Of a stretch of 64,000 nt of DNA, positions 19,988 to 37,100 are shown piece by piece (position 1 is the stretch's first letter; every line of letters begins with the position of its first letter). Source of the stretch: a virus. Its lineage: Duplodnaviria; Caudoviricetes. Position numbers and translations under genes: made by a program. Location of the stretch: positions 1 through 64,000 of the IMG/VR virus record IMGVR_UViG_3300001598_000034; one strand, 5' to 3'. Under the pieces are notes generated by a model. That model was not told the DNA's origin. It searched no databases and saw only the letters and a program-made list of their open reading frames with translations.

Positions 19988-22225
19988 TTATTTTCTCTCC
20001 ATATAATACAATTTTCTTAACTCTGGAACAGATATATTTTTTAACTTATCCTCATCTAATGTTTTCATAAACCCAACAACAGTAGCATCTTGAGGATAAA
20101 TATAAGAAATTGGTTTATGACTCAATACTTTAGGAATCAAGCCACGTATATATTTCCAATATAAATAAAAGTTGCCTTTAATTTTAATACGAAATTGCTT
20201 TGCATCCTCTAAAACTACACCCTCGATTTCTTTTTCCATAGATGGAAGAAAGTTCTGTGTTAAGTTATTAAAGTCAAAATCATTATTAATAGTGCATAGC
20301 TGCTCTTTTACTTTAAAACCAAAACTATTAGCAACATTAACTAAATCAGTATATGGTATGGTTTCACCATTAACGTCATTATGAACTATATCTAACAATA
20401 TAATAGTATTTTCCTCAATATCCATAATGTGTGGATCACGTTCGTCTATTACTTCGAATAATAAAGTAACATTATTATCCTTAATAAATTCACGCAAACG
20501 TCCTTGAGTTTCAATATTAGGAATTATACTCTCAAAGTTTTCTTTAAAGATCTTTGCGTGATCGCTACTAGTGCTAGACTTAGTTGAGAAGAATAAGGAG
20601 TTATATACCGAGTCATAAGACAACAACCCCAAGAAACCATTGTATTTTTTGTATACATTAACAGGATATGTGAACTTAAGTTTATCAATAGATGAGTCTT
20701 TGTTCTCACCTAGATTAAAGAACTTATTATAACCTCTAGCTATAATTTTATTATCTCTAACGAATAAACCTCGAGCAAGACATGTTTGCATATCCCATTT
20801 AGCCTTATAGAATGCATCACGGGTAAAGTTAAATGATTCTATATTATCAGGCAACGTCTTAACAGAGATATATCTATGTTGGCGCATTGCATCAAATAAG
20901 GATTCATTAGACATTGAGTTTATTGACTCTTTATTAATAACATGGTCAATGTGTAATAACTCAGCTTTATTTTCTGCATTGAGAATCTCAATAACATTAA
21001 TATCTTTTGACACTACATCAATAACTCCTATACGCATATTAGATCCGTATTCAACATGCGTACATAAATTAAAGACATGATTATCGCAAAATGCAGGACC
21101 AGCTTCGTCATTATTACGATGACCATGAAACTGGAAATAGTCACACATTGGAGCTTTAGCAGAACTGCTATAAGCTTTTTTCCAGCCCTCATACGTCTGC
21201 TCAATATCAGAATATCCACCAGTACCTTTAATAAGCTGACGTGTATGAACCTTTAAATCTGGAGTAAGCAATGGTACACCGCCATGTGTAAACAAATAGA
21301 TATTATGGTCTATCTTTAAATATCCACATTGAACAAACTTTTGCATAAAAGGTTTAAGATATTTTTTGGTTAACTTATTATCTTCCAAAAATTTATCAAA
21401 CTGTTTCATAGTTTGGTTCTTAAAGCTGTTACTTTTTATTTGATCAATATCGTTATTCACATAATGCCTAAACCATTCCTCATGATTTCCCTCTATAAGC
21501 ATAACATTAGGCTTATCCTTAATCTCGTTTAACTTCTTAAATACGTCAACAGAATCAGGACCACGATCAAAATAGTCACCTAAGAATACATAGAAGAAGT
21601 CATCTCTAATACCACCAGAAGAATCAAACACTTTTAATAGTGTATTATAACAACCATGAATATCAGGTATAACAATTACTTTCTTATACTTATCAGATGC
21701 AATATTAATTGGGTTATAGCCATAGTTTATTAAATGATAAGCATTATTCGGTAACATAACTTCGAATGAGCTATTGATTTCCTTCAAATCATTCTCATTT
21801 CTAAATACGCTATACATCTTGTGTATAACTTCTTCAGGTACAACTTTAAACTCAGGACGCTGCTTATTTCTTTCTATGCATTCTTCCTCAGTAACGCGTG
21901 TAAAGTCTACTACTATTTGACGGTAACGGTATTTCTTTGTAAGTCCCTTATAATTATTAAGTAATGCTTTACGGTAATGCGTTGCATCAATAATTACCAT
22001 TTCCCCATTCTTCATGCGCTCTTCTAAGAACTTCAATACTAAATCCCATACAATACCATCTTTACGTTGTGATATACTAAATTTACCAGAACAATCAATC
22101 TCTGGGCCAGTTACCAACGTCCGTACTACATCCGAAGATATAGTGTATGGTTCAAAACCATTCTTAGCAATCCATGTAGATTTACCACTACCAGGAGCAC
22201 CTCTAAGAAGAAACAATGTTCTCAT
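19988..22225 (-). CDS. Polynucleotide kinase-phosphatase-RNA ligase fusion (Pnkp-like RNA repair enzyme)
   Basis: P-loop GAPGSGKS and DAT; metallophosphoesterase DIHG / GDYFDRG / GNHE / HG / HGH; ligase motifs KYNG, EGVV, RIKIK. Confidence 0.9.
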   Translation of the reverse strand: MRTLFLLRGAPGSGKSTWIAKNGFEPYTISSDVVRTLVTGPEIDCSGKFSISQRKDGIVWDLVLKFLEERMKNGEMVIIDATHYRKALLNNYKGLTKKYRYRQIVVDFTRVTEEECIERNKQRPEFKVVPEEVIHKMYSVFRNENDLKEINSSFEVMLPNNAYHLINYGYNPINIASDKYKKVIVIPDIHGCYNTLLKVFDSSGGIRDDFFYVFLGDYFDRGPDSVDVFKKLNEIKDKPNVMLIEGNHEEWFRHYVNNDIDQIKSNSFKNQTMKQFDKFLEDNKLTKKYLKPFMQKFVQCGYLKIDHNIYLFTHGGVPLLTPDLKVHTRQLIKGTGGYSDIEQTYEGWKKAYSSSAKAPMCDYFQFHGHRNNDEAGPAFCDNHVFNLCTHVEYGSNMRIGVIDVVSKDINVIEILNAENKAELLHIDHVINKESINSMSNESLFDAMRQHRYISVKTLPDNIESFNFTRDAFYKAKWDMQTCLARGLFVRDNKIIARGYNKFFNLGENKDSSIDKLKFTYPVNVYKKYNGFLGLLSYDSVYNSLFFSTKSSTSSDHAKIFKENFESIIPNIETQGRLREFIKDNNVTLLFEVIDERDPHIMDIEENTIILLDIVHNDVNGETIPYTDLVNVANSFGFKVKEQLCTINNDFDFNNLTQNFLPSMEKEIEGVVLEDAKQFRIKIKGNFYLYWKYIRGLIPKVLSHKPISYIYPQDATVVGFMKTLDEDKLKNISVPELRKLYYMERK

Positions 22226-24062: not shown

Positions 24063-25343
24063 TTAGAAGCTAAATGTTACGTCAGTCCAATAGGTACGAA
24101 CTCTGGTTTGATCACCAGAACGACCTTTAAGATCAAAGTAACGAGCAGTAGCAACTACATTCTTAGCTACAGCCCAGTTTGCTCCGAGTTCCCAGCCACG
24201 ATAACCGTCTTGCATCCACCATGCTTTAGTAGACTTATAGGTGTCTTTACCAAGATTGTTATAAGCGTATGTACCCAAAGCAGTTGGTTTAATAAATGTA
24301 GAACCAGGACGGTCCATGTAATTTACCCAGAAACCACATGTGCCAGGGTTGTTAGCTTTAGCACCATATGCTTTGGCTCCCAATTCCCAACCGTTACGTC
24401 CGTAGCTTTCTGCGTCTTTAGTTGTACCACGATAGTAATTACCAGTAAGAGTCAATCCTTTATCTAACTCTACAGAAGTACCTACTTGCCAAATATTGGT
24501 ATGTACTGCATCATTGCCAGCAGTTGCGTCTACTACCCAGTATTGTACTGCAGGAGTCCATACGCCAACTTTGGTATCAACTTTAGCCATGTAAATACGA
24601 TCGCGATCCAACATAGCTTTGCTTCCTGTTACATATGGTGCATTTACGTTACGCATAGCCCAACCAGTAGCATTGATTACACCGAACTTGTATTTAGCTT
24701 CAACACCATCAGCTTCTGCGTCAATCATATCAGGTTGTGCAAAGTATTTGCGACCAGCACTCAAGCGTACACCACCAACACGTCCATCCAAGTATGCACG
24801 TTTAAATGTTACTTTGTCGTTATCAATTGTAGCGTTGTTTGCGTCACGGTTTGCCAATTGACGATCGTTTTCCAGCATACCAGTATATGCCCACTCGTCA
24901 TTGATGTGTCCGTTTACAAACAAACGAGTACGGAGACGACCATATCCATTGCCTACACCAGACCCTTGATAATCACCAGAAAATCCACGATAGCTGTAAC
25001 GTACTTGACCTGTAATCTTTACGTTATCTACTTTCTTTTCTACAGCTGCTACACGAACTCCGAGAGAGTCCAACTCATCTGCAAACTCTGCTGCCAACTT
25101 CTCTACATTTGCTCCTTTAGCCATTGCCTTAGCTACGATCTGTGCCATCTCATAACGAGTAGCGAGCTTATCGCCGCCGAAGGTGGCTCCATAACCTTCA
25201 ACTACACCTGCTGCTTGCAACTGAGCTACTGCATCGTAAGCCCAATGTCCTGCAGGAACGTCACTGAAGGGATTAGCATTTGCGAATGCTGTAGCAGTAA
25301 CGCCAAGAGACATTGCAATACCGAGAATTAAATTTTTCTTCAT
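24063..25343 (-). CDS. OmpM-like major outer-membrane protein (SLH domain plus porin beta-barrel)
   Basis: Signal peptide; NPFSDVPAGHWAYDAV..L...G.V.GY...F.GDK..TRYEMAQIVAKA SLH domain; KLAAEFADEL..LGVRV stalk; beta-strand body; C-terminal Phe. Confidence 0.9.
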   Translation of the reverse strand: MKKNLILGIAMSLGVTATAFANANPFSDVPAGHWAYDAVAQLQAAGVVEGYGATFGGDKLATRYEMAQIVAKAMAKGANVEKLAAEFADELDSLGVRVAAVEKKVDNVKITGQVRYSYRGFSGDYQGSGVGNGYGRLRTRLFVNGHINDEWAYTGMLENDRQLANRDANNATIDNDKVTFKRAYLDGRVGGVRLSAGRKYFAQPDMIDAEADGVEAKYKFGVINATGWAMRNVNAPYVTGSKAMLDRDRIYMAKVDTKVGVWTPAVQYWVVDATAGNDAVHTNIWQVGTSVELDKGLTLTGNYYRGTTKDAESYGRNGWELGAKAYGAKANNPGTCGFWVNYMDRPGSTFIKPTALGTYAYNNLGKDTYKSTKAWWMQDGYRGWELGANWAVAKNVVATARYFDLKGRSGDQTRVRTYWTDVTFSF

Positions 25344-25638: not shown

Positions 25639-26850
25639 TTATTTTTTAAATTTACTTACATATTCTGGATGTAGTTTTTGATAATCTTCGAGGTACATCC
25701 ATTTAAATTTATGTAGTGTTTTGCTATGGGGTCTATTGGGGTTAACCACATCAGAAATACATTTTCCACTTATGTTATTAGCTTTACCGGCTTCAGATAT
25801 AGACACATACTCATCTATAAAAGTGTTATCTAAATTTAGTTTTACAACGGATTTCTTTTTTCCACCTGATCCAATAGAGTTTATAGAAACATCTATTTTA
25901 TTATAATTTTTCCCTACTTCATCTTCTGGTCTATAAATATATCCTTTTATTTGATTTCTTCTATTTTTATTTTTAGAATATGTTCTCGCTATATAACCAG
26001 TAGCTATTCTATGATCAACATTATATTTTAATGCAAATTCATTAGCGGCATCTGTTAACGATTCAAATCTTTTTATAAAATTTCCATTTAAATCGAATTG
26101 CAATATTGGACGTTTATACTTAGATAAATCAGAAGAATTTTTGTAAGTATATAAATAGGGTGATTCTATATACAAGGAGTCATCACACAACTCTATAGAT
26201 TTCCATTTGTGCCCGTATATAACTCTATTATAGTTTTTTATTACATAACAAATATTTCCCCTAATAGTATGAAGTTTAGTATTAGTTTTAACTATTGTAG
26301 ATATATATGTAGCAGCAGCACCACTTGAATTAAAAACTCTTAACAGTATATCGTCATAAGAAAACATTCCAATTAGAGATAATTTTGGTATATTTTCTAC
26401 TGTATTTTTATATAAATGGAAGGCATCTCTTTTAAAATCTAAAATATTGAAAAGAATATTAGATATACATGCATTAGAAACGTTCATAGAGCTAGCTATC
26501 TTAGATATACTTAAACCACTATCAGCAAGAGAATATATTTTTTGTAGTTCGTCTTTAGACCTTAATATAGATCCATCTCCACCCGGTGTTAAATTATAAC
26601 CATTATTATATGAATCAAATTTAGAAATGTAATACACTTCTCTCTCATTTAGTTTATCGTTTGCACACTTTTCTATTTCCTCTATTTTAAAATGCTCAAC
26701 TCCATGTTTTCGTATTGATTTGTATAAATATCTATCACTATTTATTGCAGAATATAAATGATCTTGCCATCTTTTTTCTACGGTTTGTATTGTTTGTCCT
26801 ATATATACCTTATCATTAAAATCATTACTTATTTTATAAATGTACCCCAT
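25639..26850 (-). CDS. GIY-YIG homing endonuclease with NUMOD1-like DNA-binding repeats
   Basis: GYIYKI.N...YIGQT, R...H, E.YYI....S...GYN...GG; repeated F.S...AA....I..........W modules. Confidence 0.9.
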   Translation of the reverse strand: MGYIYKISNDFNDKVYIGQTIQTVEKRWQDHLYSAINSDRYLYKSIRKHGVEHFKIEEIEKCANDKLNEREVYYISKFDSYNNGYNLTPGGDGSILRSKDELQKIYSLADSGLSISKIASSMNVSNACISNILFNILDFKRDAFHLYKNTVENIPKLSLIGMFSYDDILLRVFNSSGAAATYISTIVKTNTKLHTIRGNICYVIKNYNRVIYGHKWKSIELCDDSLYIESPYLYTYKNSSDLSKYKRPILQFDLNGNFIKRFESLTDAANEFALKYNVDHRIATGYIARTYSKNKNRRNQIKGYIYRPEDEVGKNYNKIDVSINSIGSGGKKKSVVKLNLDNTFIDEYVSISEAGKANNISGKCISDVVNPNRPHSKTLHKFKWMYLEDYQKLHPEYVSKFKK

Positions 26851-27046: not shown

Positions 27047-27125
27047 TGGTACACGGATTCGGACTCGAACCGAAAACACCCGCGTTCTAAGCGCGGTACC
27101 TAACTGCCAATTGGGTTATCCGTGC
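27047..27125 (-). tRNA. tRNA-Leu(UAG), short variable loop
   Basis: Cloverleaf; CCGCG-CTTAGAA-CGCGG anticodon arm; GTTCGAG T-loop; encoded CCA. Confidence 0.85.
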
Positions 27126-27128
27126 ACA

Positions 27129-27401
27129 TGGTAGGCCGCGAGGAATTCGAATCCTCACTGGAAGGTTTTTCTTGCCACTATAGTTTTCACTACCTACAAA
27201 ATAGTTTGTGGTCTGGACTATGTCTTCTTCTCAAAGAGAAGGCTGGTGTATAGTCTCTACGCATTTACGAATAACTATATTCGATTTAGTACGGCGTTGT
27301 CATTTTAAAGAGTTCGCCGTTTAGCCAACATTCTAATATACATCACTGCATAATAGCTCAAAAAATAAGACCTTTGTCTCTACCTATTGGACTAGCGGCC
27401 C
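27129..27401 (-). tRNA. tRNA-Leu(UAA) interrupted by a group I intron
   Basis: Exons 27401-27367 and 27170-27129 join to AAGGT-CTTAAAA-ACCTT; T-arm and CCA present. Confidence 0.85.
27171..27366 (-). ncRNA. Group I self-splicing intron (196 nt, no ORF)
   Basis: 5' exon ends in U and the intron ends in G; IGS UUUUUUGAG; core R/S elements GTAGAGACTA and AAGACATAGTCC. Confidence 0.88.
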
Positions 27402-27423
27402 ATTATTTAATTTCTCTACTAAG

Positions 27424-27495
27424 TCCTCTGGGGAATATTCGAAATTCCGTGTCACAATTATAAGTTGTGCATCCTAACCGCTGGATGACCAGAGG
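27424..27495 (-). tRNA. tRNA-Ile(UAU)-like, embedded in an extended hairpin, no encoded CCA
   Basis: CACAA-CTTATAA-TTGTG anticodon arm, D and T arms present; acceptor stem continues as a perfect duplex spanning 27410-27510. Confidence 0.7.
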
Positions 27496-27519
27496 ACTTA
27501 GTAGAGAAATATTTTCAAT

Positions 27520-27595
27520 TGGAGCGGGATACGAGAAGTTGCACTCGTTACTACAGCTTGGAAGGCTGTTATTTTTCTACTTAAACTAATCCCGC
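27520..27595 (-). tRNA. tRNA-Gly(UCC)
   Basis: ACAGC-CTTCCAA-GCTGT; CCA; atypical T-loop. Confidence 0.85.
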
Positions 27596-27598
27596 AGT

Positions 27599-27672
27599 TG
27601 GAGCTCCCAGGTCGTTACGATCGGCCGTCTAAAGTTTACAAAACTCTTGTAATACCATTATACTATGGGAGC
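27599..27672 (-). tRNA. tRNA-Thr(UGU)
   Basis: AGAGT-TTTGTAA-ACTTT; CCA. Confidence 0.85.
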
Positions 27673-27674
27673 AT

Positions 27675-27764
27675 CGGATATCCGAGGACTTGCACCCCGA
27701 CACGGCTGTTAACCGCTACTGGTAGTTTTCAAGACTACTCCCTTGCTATTAGGGTTAGATATCC
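27675..27764 (-). tRNA. tRNA-Ser(UGA)
   Basis: GTAGT-CTTGAAA-ACTAC; long variable arm; G discriminator; no encoded CCA. Confidence 0.85.
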
Positions 27765-27767
27765 ATA

Positions 27768-27841
27768 TGGTCCGAGCAGCATTAATCGAAAATGCGATCC
27801 GTGATCCCAAATCACGAGTTATACCACTTAACTATGCCCGG
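27768..27841 (-). tRNA. tRNA-Pro(UGG)
   Basis: CGTGA-TTTGGGA-TCACG; CCA. Confidence 0.85.
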
Positions 27842-27847
27842 ATAAAT

Positions 27848-27924
27848 TGGTGCAGCGCCGAAGATTTAAACTTCGATAATCTCGATTAAAAGTCGAGTGC
27901 ACTAATCAGTTATGCTAGCGCTGC
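27848..27924 (-). tRNA. tRNA-Lys(UUU)
   Basis: CTCGA-CTTTTAA-TCGAG; CCA. Confidence 0.88.
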
Positions 27925-27925
27925 G

Positions 27926-27997
27926 TTTCTGGGGCTGGATTCGGACCAGCGCATCGTGGAGTCAAAGTCCACTGTCTTACCGCTTGACTACCCAGAA
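27926..27997 (-). tRNA. tRNA-Gln(UUG)
   Basis: GTGGA-CTTTGAC-TCCAC; no encoded CCA. Confidence 0.85.
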
Positions 27998-28002
27998 ATA
28001 AA

Positions 28003-28078
28003 TGGCGGCGACGACTTGGATTCGAACCAAGAAAAGCGGTTTTGGAGACCGCCGGTTTACCATTAAGCCTATCGTCCC
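28003..28078 (-). tRNA. tRNA-Trp(CCA)
   Basis: GCGGT-CTCCAAA-ACCGC; GTTCGAATC; CCA; irregular acceptor stem. Confidence 0.8.
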
Positions 28079-29540: not shown

Positions 29541-32018
29541 TTATTGCCTATGACCAGCATCAGCATTCATATACACTGGTACATAAGGAGCTGCATGAAC
29601 ACTAGCGGAAGTTGTACTACTATATACTTCCTTAATAGAGCCTCTCTTACGTGCTAAGTATAATTCTTTCGGATCTTCTAATTCATATACAACTTTCAAA
29701 TCATCCAAAGTTTCATCAGCTTCATATTTATCTGACTTCAGATAATCAGTAGTGATATATGTAGGAGAGTATAAATTCTCGCGCGTATCGAAATACACAG
29801 ATGCAATAGGCATAATAGATCCACCATTAGTTAACCCATCAAGAATCTGTACCATAAAGTTTACAACTAAGTTTGCAGCAGTTTTATTAGCTTGCATAGA
29901 TTGCACATTTTGAACCGCACGCTCAGCACAACTCATTTGTTCTTCTTTAAGATCCTCTTCAATATCAATTAATTCTGGGAATATAGAATAAGGAATAGGT
30001 ACAGACAAATATTGGCCCATCCAATCATCAAAATTCTTAAATTCCCAGGGTAGTGGTTTACCATTAAGAGCATTCAAATAAGTACTAAAAGTTCGCGTTT
30101 CTTTTGAAGCTACACCCATAAATGCTTTATTAACATTAGTATCAGGAACATTTCTAGTAATAAAGTCAGTATAGTTATGATCTACGTTACGAATATGATT
30201 AACCCTAGCATTATATCCATAGTTAGATACCATGTTAGCTTTATTAAGAATGTCAAGTATACCAACTTTACCAGCGTAATCTACATAAGCAGAATAAAAA
30301 CTATTGTTATTTTCTGATGTAAGAGAAGTATTTAATTCGCGCTCATTTACGTACTTATTTTTAAATATTCTTTGAATAGTAGTATAGGGAAGCTTATAGT
30401 TAGCTTTTAATTTAAAACCTTCAGCTATTTTAACAGTAGGAACAGAACATTCCACACTAGGATCAGAAGTTTCAACTGAAAACTTATCTATAATACTAGT
30501 TCTATCAGCAGCTATTTCCGTGCACTGATCTTTAGAAAAAGTACTCCCTACCCTATCTTCTTCTCCAAAAATATCTTTGTAGCATACAGGACTAGATGCA
30601 TTTTCTTGTTGGCATACACGACCCCAAGCAACTTGCCCAGTATACTCACCATTACCAGAAGAAATTAGATACATCTCTCTAACACAGCAACACCTACTCT
30701 CATTAATATAGCTAAAAGCATTATCAACTAATCCACAATAGCTAGTATCATAACTAATCTTTTTGGCAATATTAGAAAAGACATCAGTGCCGTTGACTTC
30801 TTTCGTAATAGACAATCTGTCGACATCAGTCAATACTAAATTATACTTAGTATCGCAATTATCAGCCATAAGATCATGGAATTCATTTAAAAATCCATCA
30901 TCAATAGTAAAGAAATCACTTGTTTCATGCACACAAGAAAACTCAGTAACAAGTGACTCATAATAAACATCATCAATACTAGGAAGCCTATTCCAACTTT
31001 TGAAAAATGCATTAATAATATTACGTACAGTAGTTTTATCAACACAATCTATCAAAATAGGAATAATAATACGCCTTCTACCATACATTCTATTAATATC
31101 ACAATACTTGTCTTCCAAAAACTTAAACTTAGAAGTATCGTTAAACGCTTCATCTAATTCATGATTGCTAAAATACGTATTAACGCGATATTTACCACAT
31201 ACCAAAGAACTAATTCTACCAAGAGAAGCATCAGAATATGGATCAGCATTACCTGAAATATCATAAGCACTCATTGAAGTAGCTGTTTCATTTTCTGGAT
31301 TGATATTAACTGTTTTAGTTATGTCACTAAGACTATATCCACGAAGTGCAAGAGGATTATCATTATCCATAGCCAATTTATCAGCTCTAAAGAATTTATT
31401 TTTAGCATAGGAAAACTCTTCCACTAAATCCTTATGTAGTGCAATTTTACGTTTAACACTTTCTCTATATTCCTGCCGTACATTATTCTCAATACGGGAA
31501 AGTCTCCTCGTAGTCTCCTCTTCACGTGGCCTATGTAACTCTGAAGATCTACAATTATATACAAAAGGAATACCAAAAGACAAGTCCTGTAATTGACGGA
31601 TATTTTTTATATAGTATGGATATGCTTGTACATATAAGGAATTAATACCGTATGTCTCTACACAGTTTTCAACTAAACTCTCTGCTTTATTTCTACCAAC
31701 GTCTTCTTCAGAACATAATTGGCGTTTAATATTTTTAGATTCAAACTTATCTCCATCACAAAGAGTATAATGAATACGATGTTTAATGTGCTCAGGTAAA
31801 TTAGATATGTATCGCATCATCTCTGCAAATACATATCCTCCAGTACCACCAGCGCCTACTTGCACAATATTAATCATATAGTCGTCAAATACAGAAAAGA
31901 TCTTATTAAATCCGCGTATATCCTGAAAAGCTTTATGTACATTTTTGAGACAAGATAGTCCTTTTACTCTGATAGGAAACCTATCAGAACCAGGAAGTTT
32001 TTTACTATCTATAATCAC
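29541..32018 (-). CDS. ThiF/E1-like activating enzyme (PRTRC-type) with large insertions
   Basis: VGAGGTGG; CDGD.FE.KNIKRQ; G.NKA; IDCVD...R; SGNG...GQV; SCAE catalytic-Cys motif; Q...AN. Confidence 0.85.
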   Translation of the reverse strand: MIIDSKKLPGSDRFPIRVKGLSCLKNVHKAFQDIRGFNKIFSVFDDYMINIVQVGAGGTGGYVFAEMMRYISNLPEHIKHRIHYTLCDGDKFESKNIKRQLCSEEDVGRNKAESLVENCVETYGINSLYVQAYPYYIKNIRQLQDLSFGIPFVYNCRSSELHRPREEETTRRLSRIENNVRQEYRESVKRKIALHKDLVEEFSYAKNKFFRADKLAMDNDNPLALRGYSLSDITKTVNINPENETATSMSAYDISGNADPYSDASLGRISSLVCGKYRVNTYFSNHELDEAFNDTSKFKFLEDKYCDINRMYGRRRIIIPILIDCVDKTTVRNIINAFFKSWNRLPSIDDVYYESLVTEFSCVHETSDFFTIDDGFLNEFHDLMADNCDTKYNLVLTDVDRLSITKEVNGTDVFSNIAKKISYDTSYCGLVDNAFSYINESRCCCVREMYLISSGNGEYTGQVAWGRVCQQENASSPVCYKDIFGEEDRVGSTFSKDQCTEIAADRTSIIDKFSVETSDPSVECSVPTVKIAEGFKLKANYKLPYTTIQRIFKNKYVNERELNTSLTSENNNSFYSAYVDYAGKVGILDILNKANMVSNYGYNARVNHIRNVDHNYTDFITRNVPDTNVNKAFMGVASKETRTFSTYLNALNGKPLPWEFKNFDDWMGQYLSVPIPYSIFPELIDIEEDLKEEQMSCAERAVQNVQSMQANKTAANLVVNFMVQILDGLTNGGSIMPIASVYFDTRENLYSPTYITTDYLKSDKYEADETLDDLKVVYELEDPKELYLARKRGSIKEVYSSTTSASVHAAPYVPVYMNADAGHRQ

Positions 32019-32032
32019 TACTATCCCTCCTT

Positions 32033-33919
32033 TTATTTAAACAAAGCAGTTTGTTCTTCTGTGGCAGGATGTAACTCAATAACCTTAGTATCGTCTGTAT
32101 CATTGCAAACACTTGAGAACTCATTTACAAGTGCAGCTTCAGATCTGCTATTGAAAATTAATTCATCAATACTAATAACTCCACCGTTCGCCAAGTGTTC
32201 ATCTAAGCACACCTCAAAATATTTTTCAAGCATAGACAAAGACTCATATTCAGAATCACCTTCATCAGCATCATCAACAAGAGATGCAAAGTTAGTAATC
32301 ACATCCTCAATAAACTCAATATACTCTCTCCTCAATTTCTCTGGTGCATGAATAATATGAGCTAAGAAATCAATAAAGTAGTAATTAGTTTCAGAGTGGT
32401 CATGAATAAACTGACTAATAAATAAAACATTCTGATCAAAAACATTAGAAATTAACGCTTTTTGATATTTAGACAAACCTTCCCAGAATGCAATCAAATT
32501 CCAATTATTATTTACAACATCCGTAGAGTTGAGAGTAAGTGCCGCGATCTTAAACCCGTCAGCAGTGTATAGAGAATTAAACAAATCACTGTCTTCTGCT
32601 AAATCATAGCTGCTAGCTGAAATATAGGTTTTAAGCAAGTAAGCATGCGCTCTGGCATCCATGTTTTTGATAAGAGACTCAGTATTATAGGTATTAATAA
32701 GATTATACCCATTAGTATAGTCAATTGCATCCGGAATACCAATGTCGTCTCTAACCTCTACCATATCACGCGCATCGAAGAATCTAATAATGTCACTATT
32801 ATTAACATTAGCAGCATTATAATCAAAAGACATGCTTTCAAGATAATTCATGGTACCGATTTCAATGTCTTCCAATAACTCTGCAGGTGCTGGAGTTACT
32901 TGTGCTACTCTTAATGCTTGAGGTGCTTGTGTTTCTTTTTCTTCTTTTTTGCTTTCTGTTGAGCGATTACTGACAGAGTATTTATTAACATAAGTACCTG
33001 TTTCATAGTATCTACCATAGTAAGGATTTGTAAGATATTCTGAACAATAGTAGCCTTTAGCCACAGCATAAGAAGAAGCATTCTTAGTAACCTTAGTTTT
33101 AATTTCCGGATTACCAGGACCAATATTTTCCTTTTTCAGCATAGCTTTCTCTTCTTCCTCTGTAAGAGCAAAGATATCACTAAGTTTTAGATCTTTTTGG
33201 AAACTGTTGCATTTAACACGTGCTTTATATGTAACGTCCTTATCAAAAGTACCAAGTACTACATAGAAACATACTTCATTTTCATTTGCATCATCAATAC
33301 CACTCCAAAAAGCAGACATAGAATTATGTGAATGAAGTTCACACACAAGCTCATTCTCAGTGCGCAACGTTTGAATCTTAGGATCATCTGGATAACTTAC
33401 ACTAGCCTTAGAAATCTTTTGTTCAGGATAATAAATAAAGTATTCATCTGTGCCACGTTTCTTATAAATCTGTGCAGCAGCTTCATCACCAGAATCTTTA
33501 TAAATAATATTAAAAGACCCAATAATTTCTTTGATAAGATCAGCAGGAATTTTATTATTAATTGTAAGTTCTTTAATTCCCTCATTTGCATCTTCAAGTA
33601 ATGCACACTCTTTTACTTTTTCTACAACCTGTATATTATTTCCTCCAACGTGCATACTTGTTTTCACATAAAGACCACCTTTAGCAGGGAAATAAATATT
33701 CTGTTCAGTATCAGCTTCAGCTTCAGCAGCATAAACAGAATCCACAAATTTATTTCGTGCAAACAACATAGTCTTTTTAATTCTTTCAAGAGCAGCTTCT
33801 TGTTCCTTAGTACGTTTAGGAGTAGTTGTTACTTGTTCTACAGTAGTGCCACTACCTCCACTGTACTTTTTCCATAAATTTTTATAATCTTCATAATATT
33901 TAGAATAATTATACGTCAT
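32033..33919 (-). CDS. JAB/MPN+ metalloprotease (PRTRC protein A-like) with a long acidic C-terminal extension
   Basis: E(AAAQI)...PEQ.....V.Y...ELHSHNSMSAFWSGIDDANE. Confidence 0.88.
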   Translation of the reverse strand: MTYNYSKYYEDYKNLWKKYSGGSGTTVEQVTTTPKRTKEQEAALERIKKTMLFARNKFVDSVYAAEAEADTEQNIYFPAKGGLYVKTSMHVGGNNIQVVEKVKECALLEDANEGIKELTINNKIPADLIKEIIGSFNIIYKDSGDEAAAQIYKKRGTDEYFIYYPEQKISKASVSYPDDPKIQTLRTENELVCELHSHNSMSAFWSGIDDANENEVCFYVVLGTFDKDVTYKARVKCNSFQKDLKLSDIFALTEEEEKAMLKKENIGPGNPEIKTKVTKNASSYAVAKGYYCSEYLTNPYYGRYYETGTYVNKYSVSNRSTESKKEEKETQAPQALRVAQVTPAPAELLEDIEIGTMNYLESMSFDYNAANVNNSDIIRFFDARDMVEVRDDIGIPDAIDYTNGYNLINTYNTESLIKNMDARAHAYLLKTYISASSYDLAEDSDLFNSLYTADGFKIAALTLNSTDVVNNNWNLIAFWEGLSKYQKALISNVFDQNVLFISQFIHDHSETNYYFIDFLAHIIHAPEKLRREYIEFIEDVITNFASLVDDADEGDSEYESLSMLEKYFEVCLDEHLANGGVISIDELIFNSRSEAALVNEFSSVCNDTDDTKVIELHPATEEQTALFK

Positions 33920-33938
33920 GCAAATATCATCCCTTTCA

Positions 33939-34739
33939 TTAATTACCTCCTATTATATTCTCAAACAAGTTAGTTACATTTGTGCCTATTCTTTTCAAAT
34001 ATTGACATGGGAATTCCTTAATCTCTGGTCTAGTTCCTAATTTAGAAATAAGTTCATACTGAGTTGTAATCTCATTTCCAAGAATACCGCCTGGAACTGG
34101 CATCCAATGAGACCCATCACAGACATCTAAATCATGGTTACCGATGGAAGTATAAAGCATAGTTGGGAAATAGTCTACATTAGATTCCGGTACAATTCCA
34201 AGAATATCGTGTCCCATACAACAATTATGCCCAGAATTAAATACATTAGTAAATGGGTAACGATAATAAGTAGTCATCTCCAGAGGCATATTAGTTGTAC
34301 TTAATGCATATGCGTATTGACCATTAAAATTAAACTCACGCTTTCCACAGTCTTCGACTAAAGTTCCTAAAGTAATAATACATAATGGAGGAAACGGTAT
34401 TCTAAACATTCGTAAATTATTTACATTATAGCCTTTGAAACGTTGGTCATGAGAATCTGGAATATATTCATCTAAAGACCCAAACTTAGAAATATCTCTT
34501 GGCGTCCATGATAATACAATATCATTTATGCATCCGTCATAAATAAACAAATACCCACGTCTTCTACCACGATCTATAATATGTCTGCAATTCTTAGGAA
34601 TCTTCATATTAACTTCAATAGTATCAGATGCCAAAGCCTTACATATAGAAGCGGTATCTACTATTTTAGTAGATACCGTTCCATCGCAAAGATCTATTAT
34701 TACTTTTGCAGTTCCATCATTTTTAAAATCTACAAGCAT
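33939..34739 (-). CDS. Prokaryotic E2 family D-like protein (PRTRC protein B-like)
   Basis: IPFPPL...YAYAL...YRYPFTNVFNSGHNCCMG resembles the P..NV...G..C.G E2-D motif; lies between the JAB gene and upstream genes. Confidence 0.75.
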   Translation of the reverse strand: MLVDFKNDGTAKVIIDLCDGTVSTKIVDTASICKALASDTIEVNMKIPKNCRHIIDRGRRRGYLFIYDGCINDIVLSWTPRDISKFGSLDEYIPDSHDQRFKGYNVNNLRMFRIPFPPLCIITLGTLVEDCGKREFNFNGQYAYALSTTNMPLEMTTYYRYPFTNVFNSGHNCCMGHDILGIVPESNVDYFPTMLYTSIGNHDLDVCDGSHWMPVPGGILGNEITTQYELISKLGTRPEIKEFPCQYLKRIGTNVTNLFENIIGGN

Positions 34740-34741
34740 TA

Positions 34742-35419
34742 TTATGCCTTTCTAAATACAAATCTACCCGTTTCAGGATCCAATACAAACCTCCCAGATT
34801 TAGGGGCTGACTCTTCTTTTACTGCCACTACCTCTTCTCTAGCATTCTCTTCCTCAATGGCGTCAAGCTCATTAAGTTCGCTAGCAGTAGGTTCCTCATC
34901 GTCTTTTTCTTTATCATCGGCATCTAGAAAGTGCTCGCCTTCAAGTAAAGAATTAATACGCTCTTCAAAATCCGCATCATCAAACTTTACTCTATCAGTA
35001 GTTTTTTTAGGGGCTTCAATTTCTTTTTTAGCATGCACCGCCAAATATTCACGAGCAGCATCGATTTCTCCATCTGGACAATTCATCCACATAATATTAC
35101 CATTATAAATAGGCACACCCTTTTGATATTGAGTATTACCATTAACAGTAATCTCGCGGTATGCTTGAACATTACCATTATTATTAGTAACTTTCATAAC
35201 AGATTCTGCACGTTCAACACGGTCCTCAGGAACCTCTTTTTCAACAGCTTCATCAATGCTCTTCTTCAATTGAGCAAAGTCTTTACGCATTTGCTCTCTA
35301 GCATCCGCTATCTTAATATTGATCTCATCCTGTACACTTTGGAATTCTTTAAACATATGATCCAAAGCTAATACAATATTCCCGGGGTTAGACTCAAACT
35401 TTTCAAAATTAGGTAACAT
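34742..35419 (-). CDS. Hypothetical acidic coiled-coil protein of the Ubl operon
   Basis: Likely start at MLPNF with AGGAG RBS. Confidence 0.6.
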   Translation of the reverse strand: MLPNFEKFESNPGNIVLALDHMFKEFQSVQDEINIKIADAREQMRKDFAQLKKSIDEAVEKEVPEDRVERAESVMKVTNNNGNVQAYREITVNGNTQYQKGVPIYNGNIMWMNCPDGEIDAAREYLAVHAKKEIEAPKKTTDRVKFDDADFEERINSLLEGEHFLDADDKEKDDEEPTASELNELDAIEEENAREEVVAVKEESAPKSGRFVLDPETGRFVFRKA

Positions 35420-35420
35420 C

Positions 35421-36272
35421 TTATTTCTCCTTTTCATTAAATACTTCAATAATTTTCTGGGTAGGCAATTTCTTAAATTTTTCTACAAACTTAATACATC
35501 CATCCTTAGCTACTGTTGCAAATGCCCCAGTATCATGTACACTTTCAGAACATTTCTGTATTACATATTCTTTTTGAAAATTTTCAAGAAGCTGTATTCT
35601 ACAAACACGGCAAGTGTCAGTAGTAGCTACAGGATTTTTACCAAAAGAAATATCTGGTACATAACCAATGCCTAACCCTCTGTTTAACGATTCATAAACG
35701 TCAGGAAGATAATGTTCCAAGAAACAACCTAGCTTAACACAATATTTTAACTGTGCTAATTCTACTTTAAATCTACTAGCAGTATAATTATTATCAAAAT
35801 AATTATAAGGAACATTATATACTAGCGTATTTTTATTTTTTAAATAATCAATATACTCATTTGACTTTGCCAAATTATAAACAGAGATAATCCATGCCCA
35901 TTTAGTAAAATCAAAAATAGCTGGTGGTAAGGTAATAATTGTCTTACTTAATTCACAATGTGTATCTATCATCAAATTACTATTATGTATATATTTCATA
36001 ACTAATTTATTACAGTCTTCTTTATACATAGTAGTAAAGTTATATAATGGAGTGTCATATATTTCCCAAAAGCAATTTTCATGAACATCAGTCAATGGGA
36101 TATATTTCTTAATTTCTCTTAAATAATTCCAAATACCCTCTAAACATCTTAATTTAGGAGATGCATTTAATAATGTCTCTTTAGTAATGTTTTCAGGATG
36201 GTTTACACCATTCATATAAGAGTAACTAAACAAACTTTCGATAAACATTGTTGCATTAGGTATCATACTCAT
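35421..36272 (-). CDS. Hypothetical protein of the Ubl operon
   Basis: 283-aa ORF coupled to its neighbours. Confidence 0.6.
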   Translation of the reverse strand: MSMIPNATMFIESLFSYSYMNGVNHPENITKETLLNASPKLRCLEGIWNYLREIKKYIPLTDVHENCFWEIYDTPLYNFTTMYKEDCNKLVMKYIHNSNLMIDTHCELSKTIITLPPAIFDFTKWAWIISVYNLAKSNEYIDYLKNKNTLVYNVPYNYFDNNYTASRFKVELAQLKYCVKLGCFLEHYLPDVYESLNRGLGIGYVPDISFGKNPVATTDTCRVCRIQLLENFQKEYVIQKCSESVHDTGAFATVAKDGCIKFVEKFKKLPTQKIIEVFNEKEK

Positions 36273-36565
36273 ATAAGAATTCTCCTCTTTCTAGATTTCT
36301 TTGATTCAGGAATTTTATTCATCAAGATTAATTGTAATGCTTCAAGGGATTCAACATTATTTCTCCTAATGTTTTCATTAACAGTATGTAAATAGTACAT
36401 TCCATAATCGAGGAGGTCATCCTTTGGAAAGTCCTTATCTAATAGTTCTTCTAAGGTATTAGCCTCAAATAAAGATTTAATATTATTATCGTTCTTATCT
36501 AAATACACATTAGGTAAAGACTTGACACCAGCAAGTAAGTCTAATTCAGTATTATCGTTTTGCAT
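36269..36565 (-). CDS. Hypothetical protein
   Basis: 98-aa ORF with AGGAG RBS. Confidence 0.55.
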   Translation of the reverse strand: MQNDNTELDLLAGVKSLPNVYLDKNDNNIKSLFEANTLEELLDKDFPKDDLLDYGMYYLHTVNENIRRNNVESLEALQLILMNKIPESKKSRKRRILI

Positions 36566-36612
36566 CTACATAATGTTCTCCTTTTTACTAAAAACGAAAA
36601 TTTTAAAAACCT

Positions 36613-36792
36613 TCGCCCTATGAATATTAAAATATACTATTCTTGCCGAAGACGCAATGATCTCCTCAAAGGCAGTAATAATATATTTTAATATTCATAG
36701 GGCGATTAAATAACTTGATCAGCTGTTTTTGTTTTACGTTTTTTATTTATATGTTAAATATCTCTTAGCTGACCTATTTAAGTCGCCCTATG
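36613..36792 (-). promoter_or_regulatory. Alternative-hairpin attenuator-like element
   Basis: 24-bp IR 36613-36636 / 36682-36705 followed by a U tract; TCGCCCTATG repeated at 36783-36792 gives a competing pairing. Confidence 0.55.
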
Positions 36793-36854
36793 TAGTGACT
36801 AAGGGAGCTGATTAGCAGCCATTAGTCTGTGTACGTACAGACTAACGGGTCAGA

Positions 36855-37100
36855 TTAGCAGCCCTTAGTCTGTGCACGTACAGACAAGTTTGCACTGTAT
36901 ACATGCATACCATTTGCATCCACGCCATCATCACTCCAAGAGGAAATGCGTGCGTTAGTGGGGAGGTTAGGAACTTGAGCACGAACTGCCTCAATGCAGT
37001 CTTCATCACTGAGAACTTCATCAGCAGTCATGAAGGGGAACTCAAAATCTCCATATCCAGCCACACGAATAATCTTCTTAATCATTTCATTTTGTTGCAT
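36855..37100 (-). CDS. Ubiquitin-like modifier (PRTRC protein C / Prok-Ub-like)
   Basis: 81 aa; P.L.NA.I motif and C-terminal AQTKGC (GTKG-like) upstream of the E2, JAB and E1 genes. Confidence 0.75.
   Translation of the reverse strand: MQQNEMIKKIIRVAGYGDFEFPFMTADEVLSDEDCIEAVRAQVPNLPTNARISSWSDDGVDANGMHVYSANLSVRAQTKGC

Follow-up and report, generated by a model that had tools for sequence, protein, structure and literature searches.

Could a large bacteriophage carry a whole ubiquitin-like conjugation pathway of its own, and what would such a pathway be for? The question is raised by a group of genes on the minus strand of IMG/VR virus record IMGVR_UViG_3300001598_000034, a sequence of 146,590 bp estimated to be 92% complete, whose first 64 kb are the stretch analysed here (hereafter, the window). 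Between positions 29541 and 37100, the listing of open reading frames (ORFs) gives seven, all in the same direction. A sequence-only reading had claimed that they encode a ubiquitin-like protein (Ubl, also called the tag below), an E2-like protein, a JAB peptidase and an E1, together with three further genes. All ORF coordinates match that claim exactly, and the motifs on which it relied can be read in the translations: the TKGC end of the Ubl, GAGGTGG and SCAE in E1, and the intact, full JAMM motif of the JAB protein (an upstream Glu, then H-S-H, seven residues and S-x-x-D). The features, from the upstream end of the operon, are the following.

36855 to 37100, minus strand: Ubl precursor of 81 aa, ending Q-T-K-G-C, with a predicted mature C-terminus at Gly80
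36566 to 36854, minus strand: structured spacer that separates the Ubl gene from the remaining operon genes, recognised by RNA folding and repeats
36269 to 36565, minus strand: 98-aa protein with no assigned function, its position kept in relatives
35421 to 36272, minus strand: 283-aa protein with no assigned function, probably the N-terminal half of a 494-585-aa protein of relatives
34742 to 35419, minus strand: 225-aa acidic protein with no assigned function, probably the C-terminal half of the same 494-585-aa protein
33939 to 34739, minus strand: E2-like carrier protein of 266 aa, with predicted catalytic Cys174
32033 to 33919, minus strand: JAB/JAMM metallopeptidase of 628 aa, recognised by PRTRC_A homology and its JAMM residues
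29541 to 32018, minus strand: E1, a ThiF-type adenylating enzyme of 825 aa, recognised by PRTRC_ThiF homology, with predicted thioester Cys697

The name PRTRC stands for ParB-Related, ThiF-Related Cassette, represented in NCBIfam by models TIGR03735-03738 and related ones. Taking into account the homology of E1, E2 and JAB, their intact catalytic residues, the beta-grasp model of the tag, its conserved Gly end and the conserved synteny, it is probable that the operon encodes a functional Ubl conjugation cascade of the PRTRC or '6d' lineage, which one lineage of large phages retains as a conserved module. In the proposed cascade, JAB would cut the Ubl precursor after Gly80, removing Cys81; E1 would then adenylate Gly80 with ATP and take the tag as a thioester on Cys697, from which it would pass to Cys174 of E2 and, finally, be attached to lysines of target proteins. 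The same JAB may also remove the attached tag. Each chemical step is deduced from homology and residue conservation; the trimming and the biological role are likewise deductions.

The three enzymes and the tag

For all three enzymes, the best NCBIfam matches are PRTRC models: PRTRC_ThiF (TIGR03736; E 6e-17) for E1, PRTRC_A (5e-11) for JAB and PRTRC_B (8e-5) for E2. Comparisons of profile against profile, carried out with hhalign, sharpen this relationship, four annotated plasmid loci (e.g., that of Cupriavidus metallidurans plasmid NZ_CP046330.1) serving as the PRTRC reference. E1 aligns with eight short PRTRC-type E1s at a probability of 99.9% (E 2.7e-32), covering the whole of the short protein. 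Its core is interrupted by three inserts, at residues ~150-315, ~340-445 and ~480-670 (~480 aa in total), and is followed by a C-terminal tail. Across 17 sequences the invariant positions include G55-G61, R99, Q100, K111, D324, D327, S453-N456, G461-V463, S696, C697 and A698, which map to the Gly-rich loop, the R-Q pair, the D-x-x-D motif, the S-S-G-N-G...G-Q-V strand and the S-C motif, this last being common to the window E1 and the plasmid PRTRC ThiF proteins.

The E2 family (27 sequences) aligns over its full length with the four plasmid PRTRC_B proteins (probability 96.3%, E 1.6e-9), and Prok-E2_D (PF14460) is found on five of 23 of its members. P162, C174, G176 and D203 are invariant, N165 nearly so, and the loop P162-x-x-N165...C174-x-G176 is placed, as in E2 enzymes, between the beta-meander and the helix that follows. 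In the AlphaFold2 (AF2) model of this protein (predicted local distance difference test, pLDDT, 81), all structural matches spanning residues 46-250 are E2s of the UBC type. An absolutely conserved downstream His has been described in type 6d E2s (Iyer, Burroughs, Aravind 2006; PMC1779556). In the N201-x-D203 motif of the phage family, His202, a candidate for the published His, is found in the window and in one related contig (L009), with other residues replacing it elsewhere.

JAB aligns with four PRTRC_A proteins at a probability of 98.6% (E 1.1e-15), covering positions 8-201 of 208. Its residues ~40-250 correspond to the whole of PRTRC_A (JAB-N plus JAB), while residues ~260-628 (~370 aa) are extra and mostly helical; a search of this C-terminal region in the ESM Atlas returned no usable feature match, only structure matches of low template-modelling (TM) score. 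E146, H196, H198, S206 and D209 are invariant in eight sequences, including that of Salmonella phage Arash. The Trp that closes the 'V-V-W' of PRTRC_A aligns with a Tyr in the clade of the window, one plasmid sequence having been aligned. The large extra regions that had been claimed for both enzymes are thus real, E1 reaching 825 aa against ~267 aa in PRTRC and JAB 628 aa against ~213 aa.

As for the tag, a word-based homologue search with the Ubl alone returned only itself, and neither Pfam nor NCBIfam, TIGR03738 included, matches any of the 19 members of its family. A profile search of 1.84 billion representatives recovered the query and 16 further full-length proteins of 72-91 aa. In the alignment of the 19 sequences, G15, W55, Q77, K79 and G80 are invariant, and the C-termini all carry Q-x-K-G, followed by no residue, by one (Cys) or by two. 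An end at Gly plus a variable zero to two residues is the pattern of modifiers whose maturation requires trimming to a free Gly.

The sequence-only reading had proposed this removal of the terminal Cys, and had staked its interpretation on the 81-aa protein having a beta-grasp fold. As regards the fold, the AF2 model (pLDDT 84.4, predicted TM score 0.68) is a beta-grasp, predicted to consist of two strands, a helix, two further strands and a flexible tail. Compared with 48,161 chains (VIA-align), nearly all of its top 50 matches are beta-grasp domains of the ubiquitin superfamily, with Z 4.5-5.6 over 57-71 aligned residues, mostly at ~3 Å; among those named are SUMO, Smt3, ubiquitin, Fubi, ISG15, UBX, PB1, MoaD and bacterial BilA. 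As regards the trimming, the comparative data favour it, through the variable ends of the family and through tandem di-Ubl proteins that would need a cut after Gly. The prediction of a complex between E1 (825 aa) and the Ubl, run without controls, gave a score of 0.13 against a mark of 0.32 and speaks neither for nor against binding.

Tandem di-Ubl genes were observed in other phage cassettes of PRTRC type in IMG/VR (loci L049:1330-1752, L050:1330-1752 and L055-L057:1326-1748). Each encodes two near-identical repeats, both ending T-G-T-K-G and placed head to tail, like polyubiquitin. The di-Ubl proteins of these five loci score with the phage-Ubl profile (E 2.8e-4) and with the PRTRC_C profile (E 1.2e-6), and so they link the two families transitively. 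The Ubl itself shares with PRTRC_C the A-x-x-K-G end, the plasmid proteins finishing in R-A-x-x-K-G followed by 0 to ~55 residues.

Other tag-like proteins were seen in passing. A smaller cassette contains a 238-aa protein matched by the PRTRC_C profile (L010:2897-3613, the same as L032:1175-1891), which ends A-Q-N-K-S-K and has a Ser at the position of the invariant Gly of the family. On two viral contigs of 190-240 kb (L011:12226-12651 and L016:9388-9954), proteins of 141-188 aa ending G-A-K-K-G lie beside short PRTRC-type E1s (267-270 aa), and they may be tags with N-terminal extensions.

Relatives on plasmids, in bacterial defence and in other phages

Type 6d, the operon type closest to this one, was defined as comprising a Ubl with Gly at its C-terminus, a helical protein, a Cys-bearing E2, a JAB that includes JAB-N, and an E1 (PMC1779556). 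In the plasmid PRTRC loci the order is (ParB) - E - C - F - B - A - ThiF, with ParB present in three of the four stretches fetched. The phage order, Ubl - x (three proteins) - E2 - JAB - E1, equals C - F - B - A - ThiF of the plasmids, and to this are added homologous E1, E2 and JAB (its JAB-N part included) and a tag of ~70-80 aa ending R/x-A-x-x-K-G with variable extensions. Profile comparisons and gene order therefore agree with the earlier claim of a PRTRC-like Ubl, E2, JAB and E1 set on a large phage. The same reading saw no ParB partner, and this holds genome-wide: a scan with ParB_N (PF02195) found none in the whole 146,590-bp record, whereas control genomes score. Neither PRTRC_E nor PRTRC_F is detectable; no NCBIfam model for them matches the accessory proteins, and hhalign gives E 0.019-0.93. 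Three unrelated proteins stand in their place. The replicon differs as well, being a lytic-looking phage of 147 kb instead of a plasmid or an integrative and conjugative element. By its sequence, the operon is thus a match to type 6d that lacks the 'ParB-related' part of the PRTRC definition and stays under the curated thresholds. It is a phage-borne, ParB-less variant of a kind already known and functionally unstudied, in which E1 and JAB are enlarged and the tag belongs to a novel family.

Characterised bacterial relatives with E1, E2 and JAB are found in Bil and in the type II cyclic-oligonucleotide-based antiphage signalling system (CBASS) with Cap2/Cap3, and both are antiviral (PMC10557695, PMC10097602). 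BilABCD (type 6c, ISG15-like; PMC10557695) also has separate Ubl, E2, JAB-type peptidase and E1, with the same predicted cascade of adenylation, E1 thioester, E2 thioester and lysine, and the structural matches of the tag include the BilA Ubl (8tyz_B, Z 4.9). However, an inactive and an active adenylation domain stand in tandem in the Bil E1, together with a CYS domain, the Bil E2 is of the CEHH type, and Bil is a host-encoded defence, while the window operon is phage-encoded and gives no sequence match to the Bil models. Cap2/Cap3 (types 6a and 6b) share the ThiF-type E1 chemistry and the associated JAB peptidase, but in CBASS a single fused protein carries E1 and E2, and the C-terminus of the cGAS-like enzyme takes the place of the 'tag', with no free Ubl. 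Among the Bil (6c), Bub (6e) and CBASS models of PADLOC and NCBIfam only weak matches to the E1 domain were obtained, and none to E2, JAB or Ubl; the window E1 weakly matches the E1-E2 models of PADLOC (best E 1.6e-5) and the 6A-MBL cap2_3 model (0.011), and PADLOC has no match for E2, JAB, Ubl or the accessory proteins. Phages lambda and T1 also pair a beta-grasp protein with a conserved Gly (TAPI) with a JAB (TAPK, JAB plus NlpC), although they do so within the tail module, without E1 or E2 and with no predicted conjugation (PMC1779556).

Closer relatives occur in other viral genomes. Metagenomic data contain 16 relatives of the E1, 521-849 aa long, and an IMG/VR scan with the E1 alignment found eight contigs of 66-162 kb (L002-L009), plus a smaller version in L010. 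The order tag - ~100 aa - ~500-585 aa - E2 - JAB - E1 is present in seven of the eight, and L008, of which 4.2 kb of sequence were available, shows E2 - JAB - E1. In L004, L007 and L009, the contigs examined upstream, the operon and a gene for an RNA polymerase of ~900 aa, the same gene as its neighbour in the window, stand back to back. The enlarged enzymes are kept across several phages at only 30-50% identity. Because the gene order recurs in eight other contigs and the catalytic residues are invariant, the operon is more than a chance assembly.

An IMG/VR scan with the JAB alignment extends this picture to 75 loci, many of which lie on contigs of 100-280 kb. A PRTRC-type E1 is found no more than 4 kb from the JAB gene in 71 of them, an E2 as well in 55, and a profile-detectable tag as well in 33. 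Distant versions are present in cultured phages deposited in GenBank, namely Salmonella phage Arash, Vibrio phages D69, D181 and D148, and Bacillus phages KLEB27-3, Edson and WH1, where they are annotated as 'hypothetical' or 'structural protein'. The sequence-only reading had called a PRTRC-type set unusual in a phage, and in view of these counts it overstated the rarity. In Arash (our locus L019, OQ632216.1 176281-179301) a PRTRC_A-like JAB (1.8e-21) adjoins a PRTRC-type E1 (7e-15), and the JAMM residues are common to Arash and the window, whereas the enzymes of the distant versions are shorter (Arash gp246c-gp248c: E1 346 aa, JAB 412 aa) and match at 26-40% identity over only 8-25% of the window protein. 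Arash gp246c (E1-like) and gp248c (in the E2 position) were reported as 'structural protein' by mass spectrometry of particles (PMC10585845). Since ribonucleotide reductases are among the 116 proteins of that particle proteome (PMC10585845), the result shows expression rather than packaging. In the literature, no paper was found on a phage-encoded E1/E2/Ubl system or on any PRTRC experiment, nor one joining PRTRC to ubiquitin substantively, and a survey of jumbo phages (PMC7824862) makes no mention of E1, JAB or ThiF.

Accessory genes and surroundings

The three proteins encoded between the tag and E2 have weaker ties to other families. A profile built from the 94-103-aa proteins that occupy this place in relatives weakly matches the 98-aa protein (15.7 bits, E 6e-6 among seven proteins), for which Pfam, PHROGs and NCBIfam offer no family. 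Over its N-terminus, the 283-aa protein can be aligned colinearly, if weakly, with the start of the 494-585-aa protein of relatives; it has no match in Pfam or to PRTRC_F, and in the ESM Atlas it returned no usable feature match, only structure matches of low TM score. A zinc finger (C-x-x-C...C...H) considered in this protein was dropped because the motif is not conserved in relatives. In the third protein, an acidic run and a C-terminal S-G-R-F-V (S-G-R-x-V) align with the C-terminal end of the long protein of relatives, a weak homology as well. On these alignments, the single long gene of relatives seems to be split in two in the window.

The third gene is listed as an ORF from 34742 to 35449 (235 aa). 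The likelier start is the ATG at 35419, which gives 225 aa, lies seven nt after AAGGAG and overlaps the preceding stop (TAAGATG). A single frameshifted gene for the 283-aa and 235-aa ORFs was considered and rejected, the strong ribosome-binding site pointing instead to a coupled gene pair. Scaffold or target specificity is the likeliest contribution of the accessory proteins, of the ~370-aa helical tail of JAB and of the ~480 aa inserted in E1.

Two repeat structures lie in the spacer (36566-36854): a hairpin of 12 bp directly behind the stop codon of the Ubl gene (36819-36848) and an inverted repeat whose arms measure 35 nt (36613-36705). The RNA fold of the spacer has a z-score of -7.0 against shuffles. 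In relatives a gap of ~250-290 nt is found at this position, with hairpins in two of the three examined (L002 and L004, not L009). As a conjecture, the spacer may act as an attenuator or stabiliser, and may set the ratio of tag to enzymes. The sequence-only reading had placed the operon behind the leftward promoters of retron-like units and its action at an early stage of infection. A scan for sigma-70-type promoters gave 62 sites against 49 expected, which is background level and lends these two proposals no support; the phage encodes its own RNA polymerase.

Apart from the operon, the genome provides eight tRNAs and codes for a major head protein and a head-protease-like protein, as well as for a phage RNA polymerase subunit and an RNA ligase/kinase. 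A megablast of the region against GenBank phages gave zero matches, and PHROGs offered no family for any operon protein, bar one match at chance level. Downstream of E1 lie an array of eight tRNAs (27047-28078, minus strand), beginning 1.5 kb from the operon, and a GIY-YIG homing endonuclease (25639-26850, minus strand), whereas relatives have an ORF of 329-434 aa directly after E1. Further on, a 426-aa protein (24063-25343, minus strand) carries an S-layer-homology (SLH) domain at its N-terminus (Pfam E 3e-9), a hint that the host wall is perhaps SLH-anchoring, as in Bacillota. The 409-aa gene after E1 in L004, the sole ORF of this kind compared, lacks a counterpart in the window, the 426-aa protein included. 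A 745-aa protein (19988-22225, minus strand) matches phrog_8238, annotated as RNA ligase, from end to end (E 2e-181), and parts of it also match polynucleotide kinase, phosphatase and RNA ligase families; by sequence it is probably a tRNA-repair enzyme.

Weighing the cascade and its meaning

Several points weigh against a functional cascade. Taken singly, the proteins fall below the curated family cut-offs, Pfam ThiF excepted: in Pfam, ThiF reaches 29.1 bits (cut-off 28.1), Prok-JAB 24.4 (25) and Prok-E2_D 16.8 (25), and in NCBIfam ThiF has 61.8 bits against 144.75, A 42.5 against 101.8 and B 22.2 against 131.45, so that none of the NCBIfam cut-offs is reached. The homology is firm despite these weak single-protein matches, because it comes from profile-profile comparison. 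The structural scores are low too, with a best Z of 5.6 for the Ubl and of only up to 4.7 for E2, and Foldseek against the PDB gave no match at E <= 0.001 for either model; for the Ubl, a modest Z is to be expected in so small a domain, and its list of matches is one-sided. The direct profile comparison of Ubl with PRTRC_C, full length and colinear, gives E 0.011, which is not significant. The accessory proteins resemble nothing in Pfam, PHROGs, NCBIfam, PADLOC, the ESM Atlas or the PRTRC comparisons, and no E3 or target is identifiable. Finally, the literature carries the PRTRC name only as annotation or in passing, and no biochemistry was found for any PRTRC-type system.

The alternative that survives best, unlikely as we consider it, is that of a phage-carried exclusion or defence system that, like Bil, would tag the proteins of competing phages or mobile elements and not serve the infection cycle of its carrier. 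The antiviral activity of its Bil and Cap2/Cap3 relatives (PMC10557695, PMC10097602) speaks for it, as do the weak PADLOC matches of E1 to 'E1-E2' models described above. The absence of PADLOC matches for the remaining proteins of the operon argues against it, and so does the location: in every related contig the operon occupies one fixed position, beside RNA polymerase and head genes, and this constancy suggests a core module of the lineage rather than a swappable accessory island.

More doubtful still is a sulfur-carrier pathway, in which E1 would adenylate the small protein and so turn it into a thiocarboxylate donor that thiolates a small molecule, tRNA or DNA, and JAB would only trim. QbsC/QbsD/QbsE and CysO/Mec are sulfur-carrier systems in which a JAB trims the precursor. 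The make-up of such systems, E1 plus JAB plus a small beta-grasp protein ending in Gly with a short extension, is that seen here, a point discussed by Iyer et al. (PMC1779556), and the tRNA array 1.5 kb downstream also speaks for this reading. A sulfur carrier would leave without explanation the conserved E2-fold protein with its invariant Cys, and the tandem di-Ubl proteins of related cassettes resemble polyubiquitin; moreover, Pfam and NCBIfam reveal no rhodanese, desulfurase or sulfurtransferase domain in any operon protein.

That the operon is what remains, decaying or inactive, of a plasmid cassette once captured, its large inserts being signs of lost function, is very improbable, since the scores far under the curated PRTRC cut-offs, the absence of ParB, E and F (PF02195, hhalign, NCBIfam) and the apparently split middle gene are set against frames that are all open, catalytic residues invariant across 8-27 diverged sequences, a split gene with a proper ribosome-binding site and a coupled start, and enlarged forms retained by several phages despite their low identity.

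A functional conjugation cascade thus being the probable reading, its role can be approached only conditionally. Host take-over or counter-defence would be the first candidate, short of an even chance; the tagging of the phage's own virion, assembly or polymerase proteins follows, and some other role is the least expected of the three. As a wider and more tentative idea, which we regard as possible without favouring it, large phages would run their own Ubl tagging during infection, aimed at host defence or take-over targets or at their own polymerase or virion proteins, with the E1 inserts acting as the catalytic-Cys and E2-recruiting domains of eukaryotic E1s do.

CBASS Cap2/Cap3, Bil and Bub have recently been shown or proposed to be antiviral, and PRTRC/6d is the type for which no experiment was found. 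Its intact and strongly conserved versions are fixed modules of large phages, including culturable phages of Salmonella, Vibrio and Bacillus, which offers a tractable route to its function. From the enlarged E1 and JAB it could be learned how a minimal E1 acquires accessory domains. The operon also points to a possible use of protein tagging by phages against their hosts; if large phages do run their own tagging pathway during infection, protein tagging would be, beyond its part in host defence, an offensive tool of viruses in bacteria.

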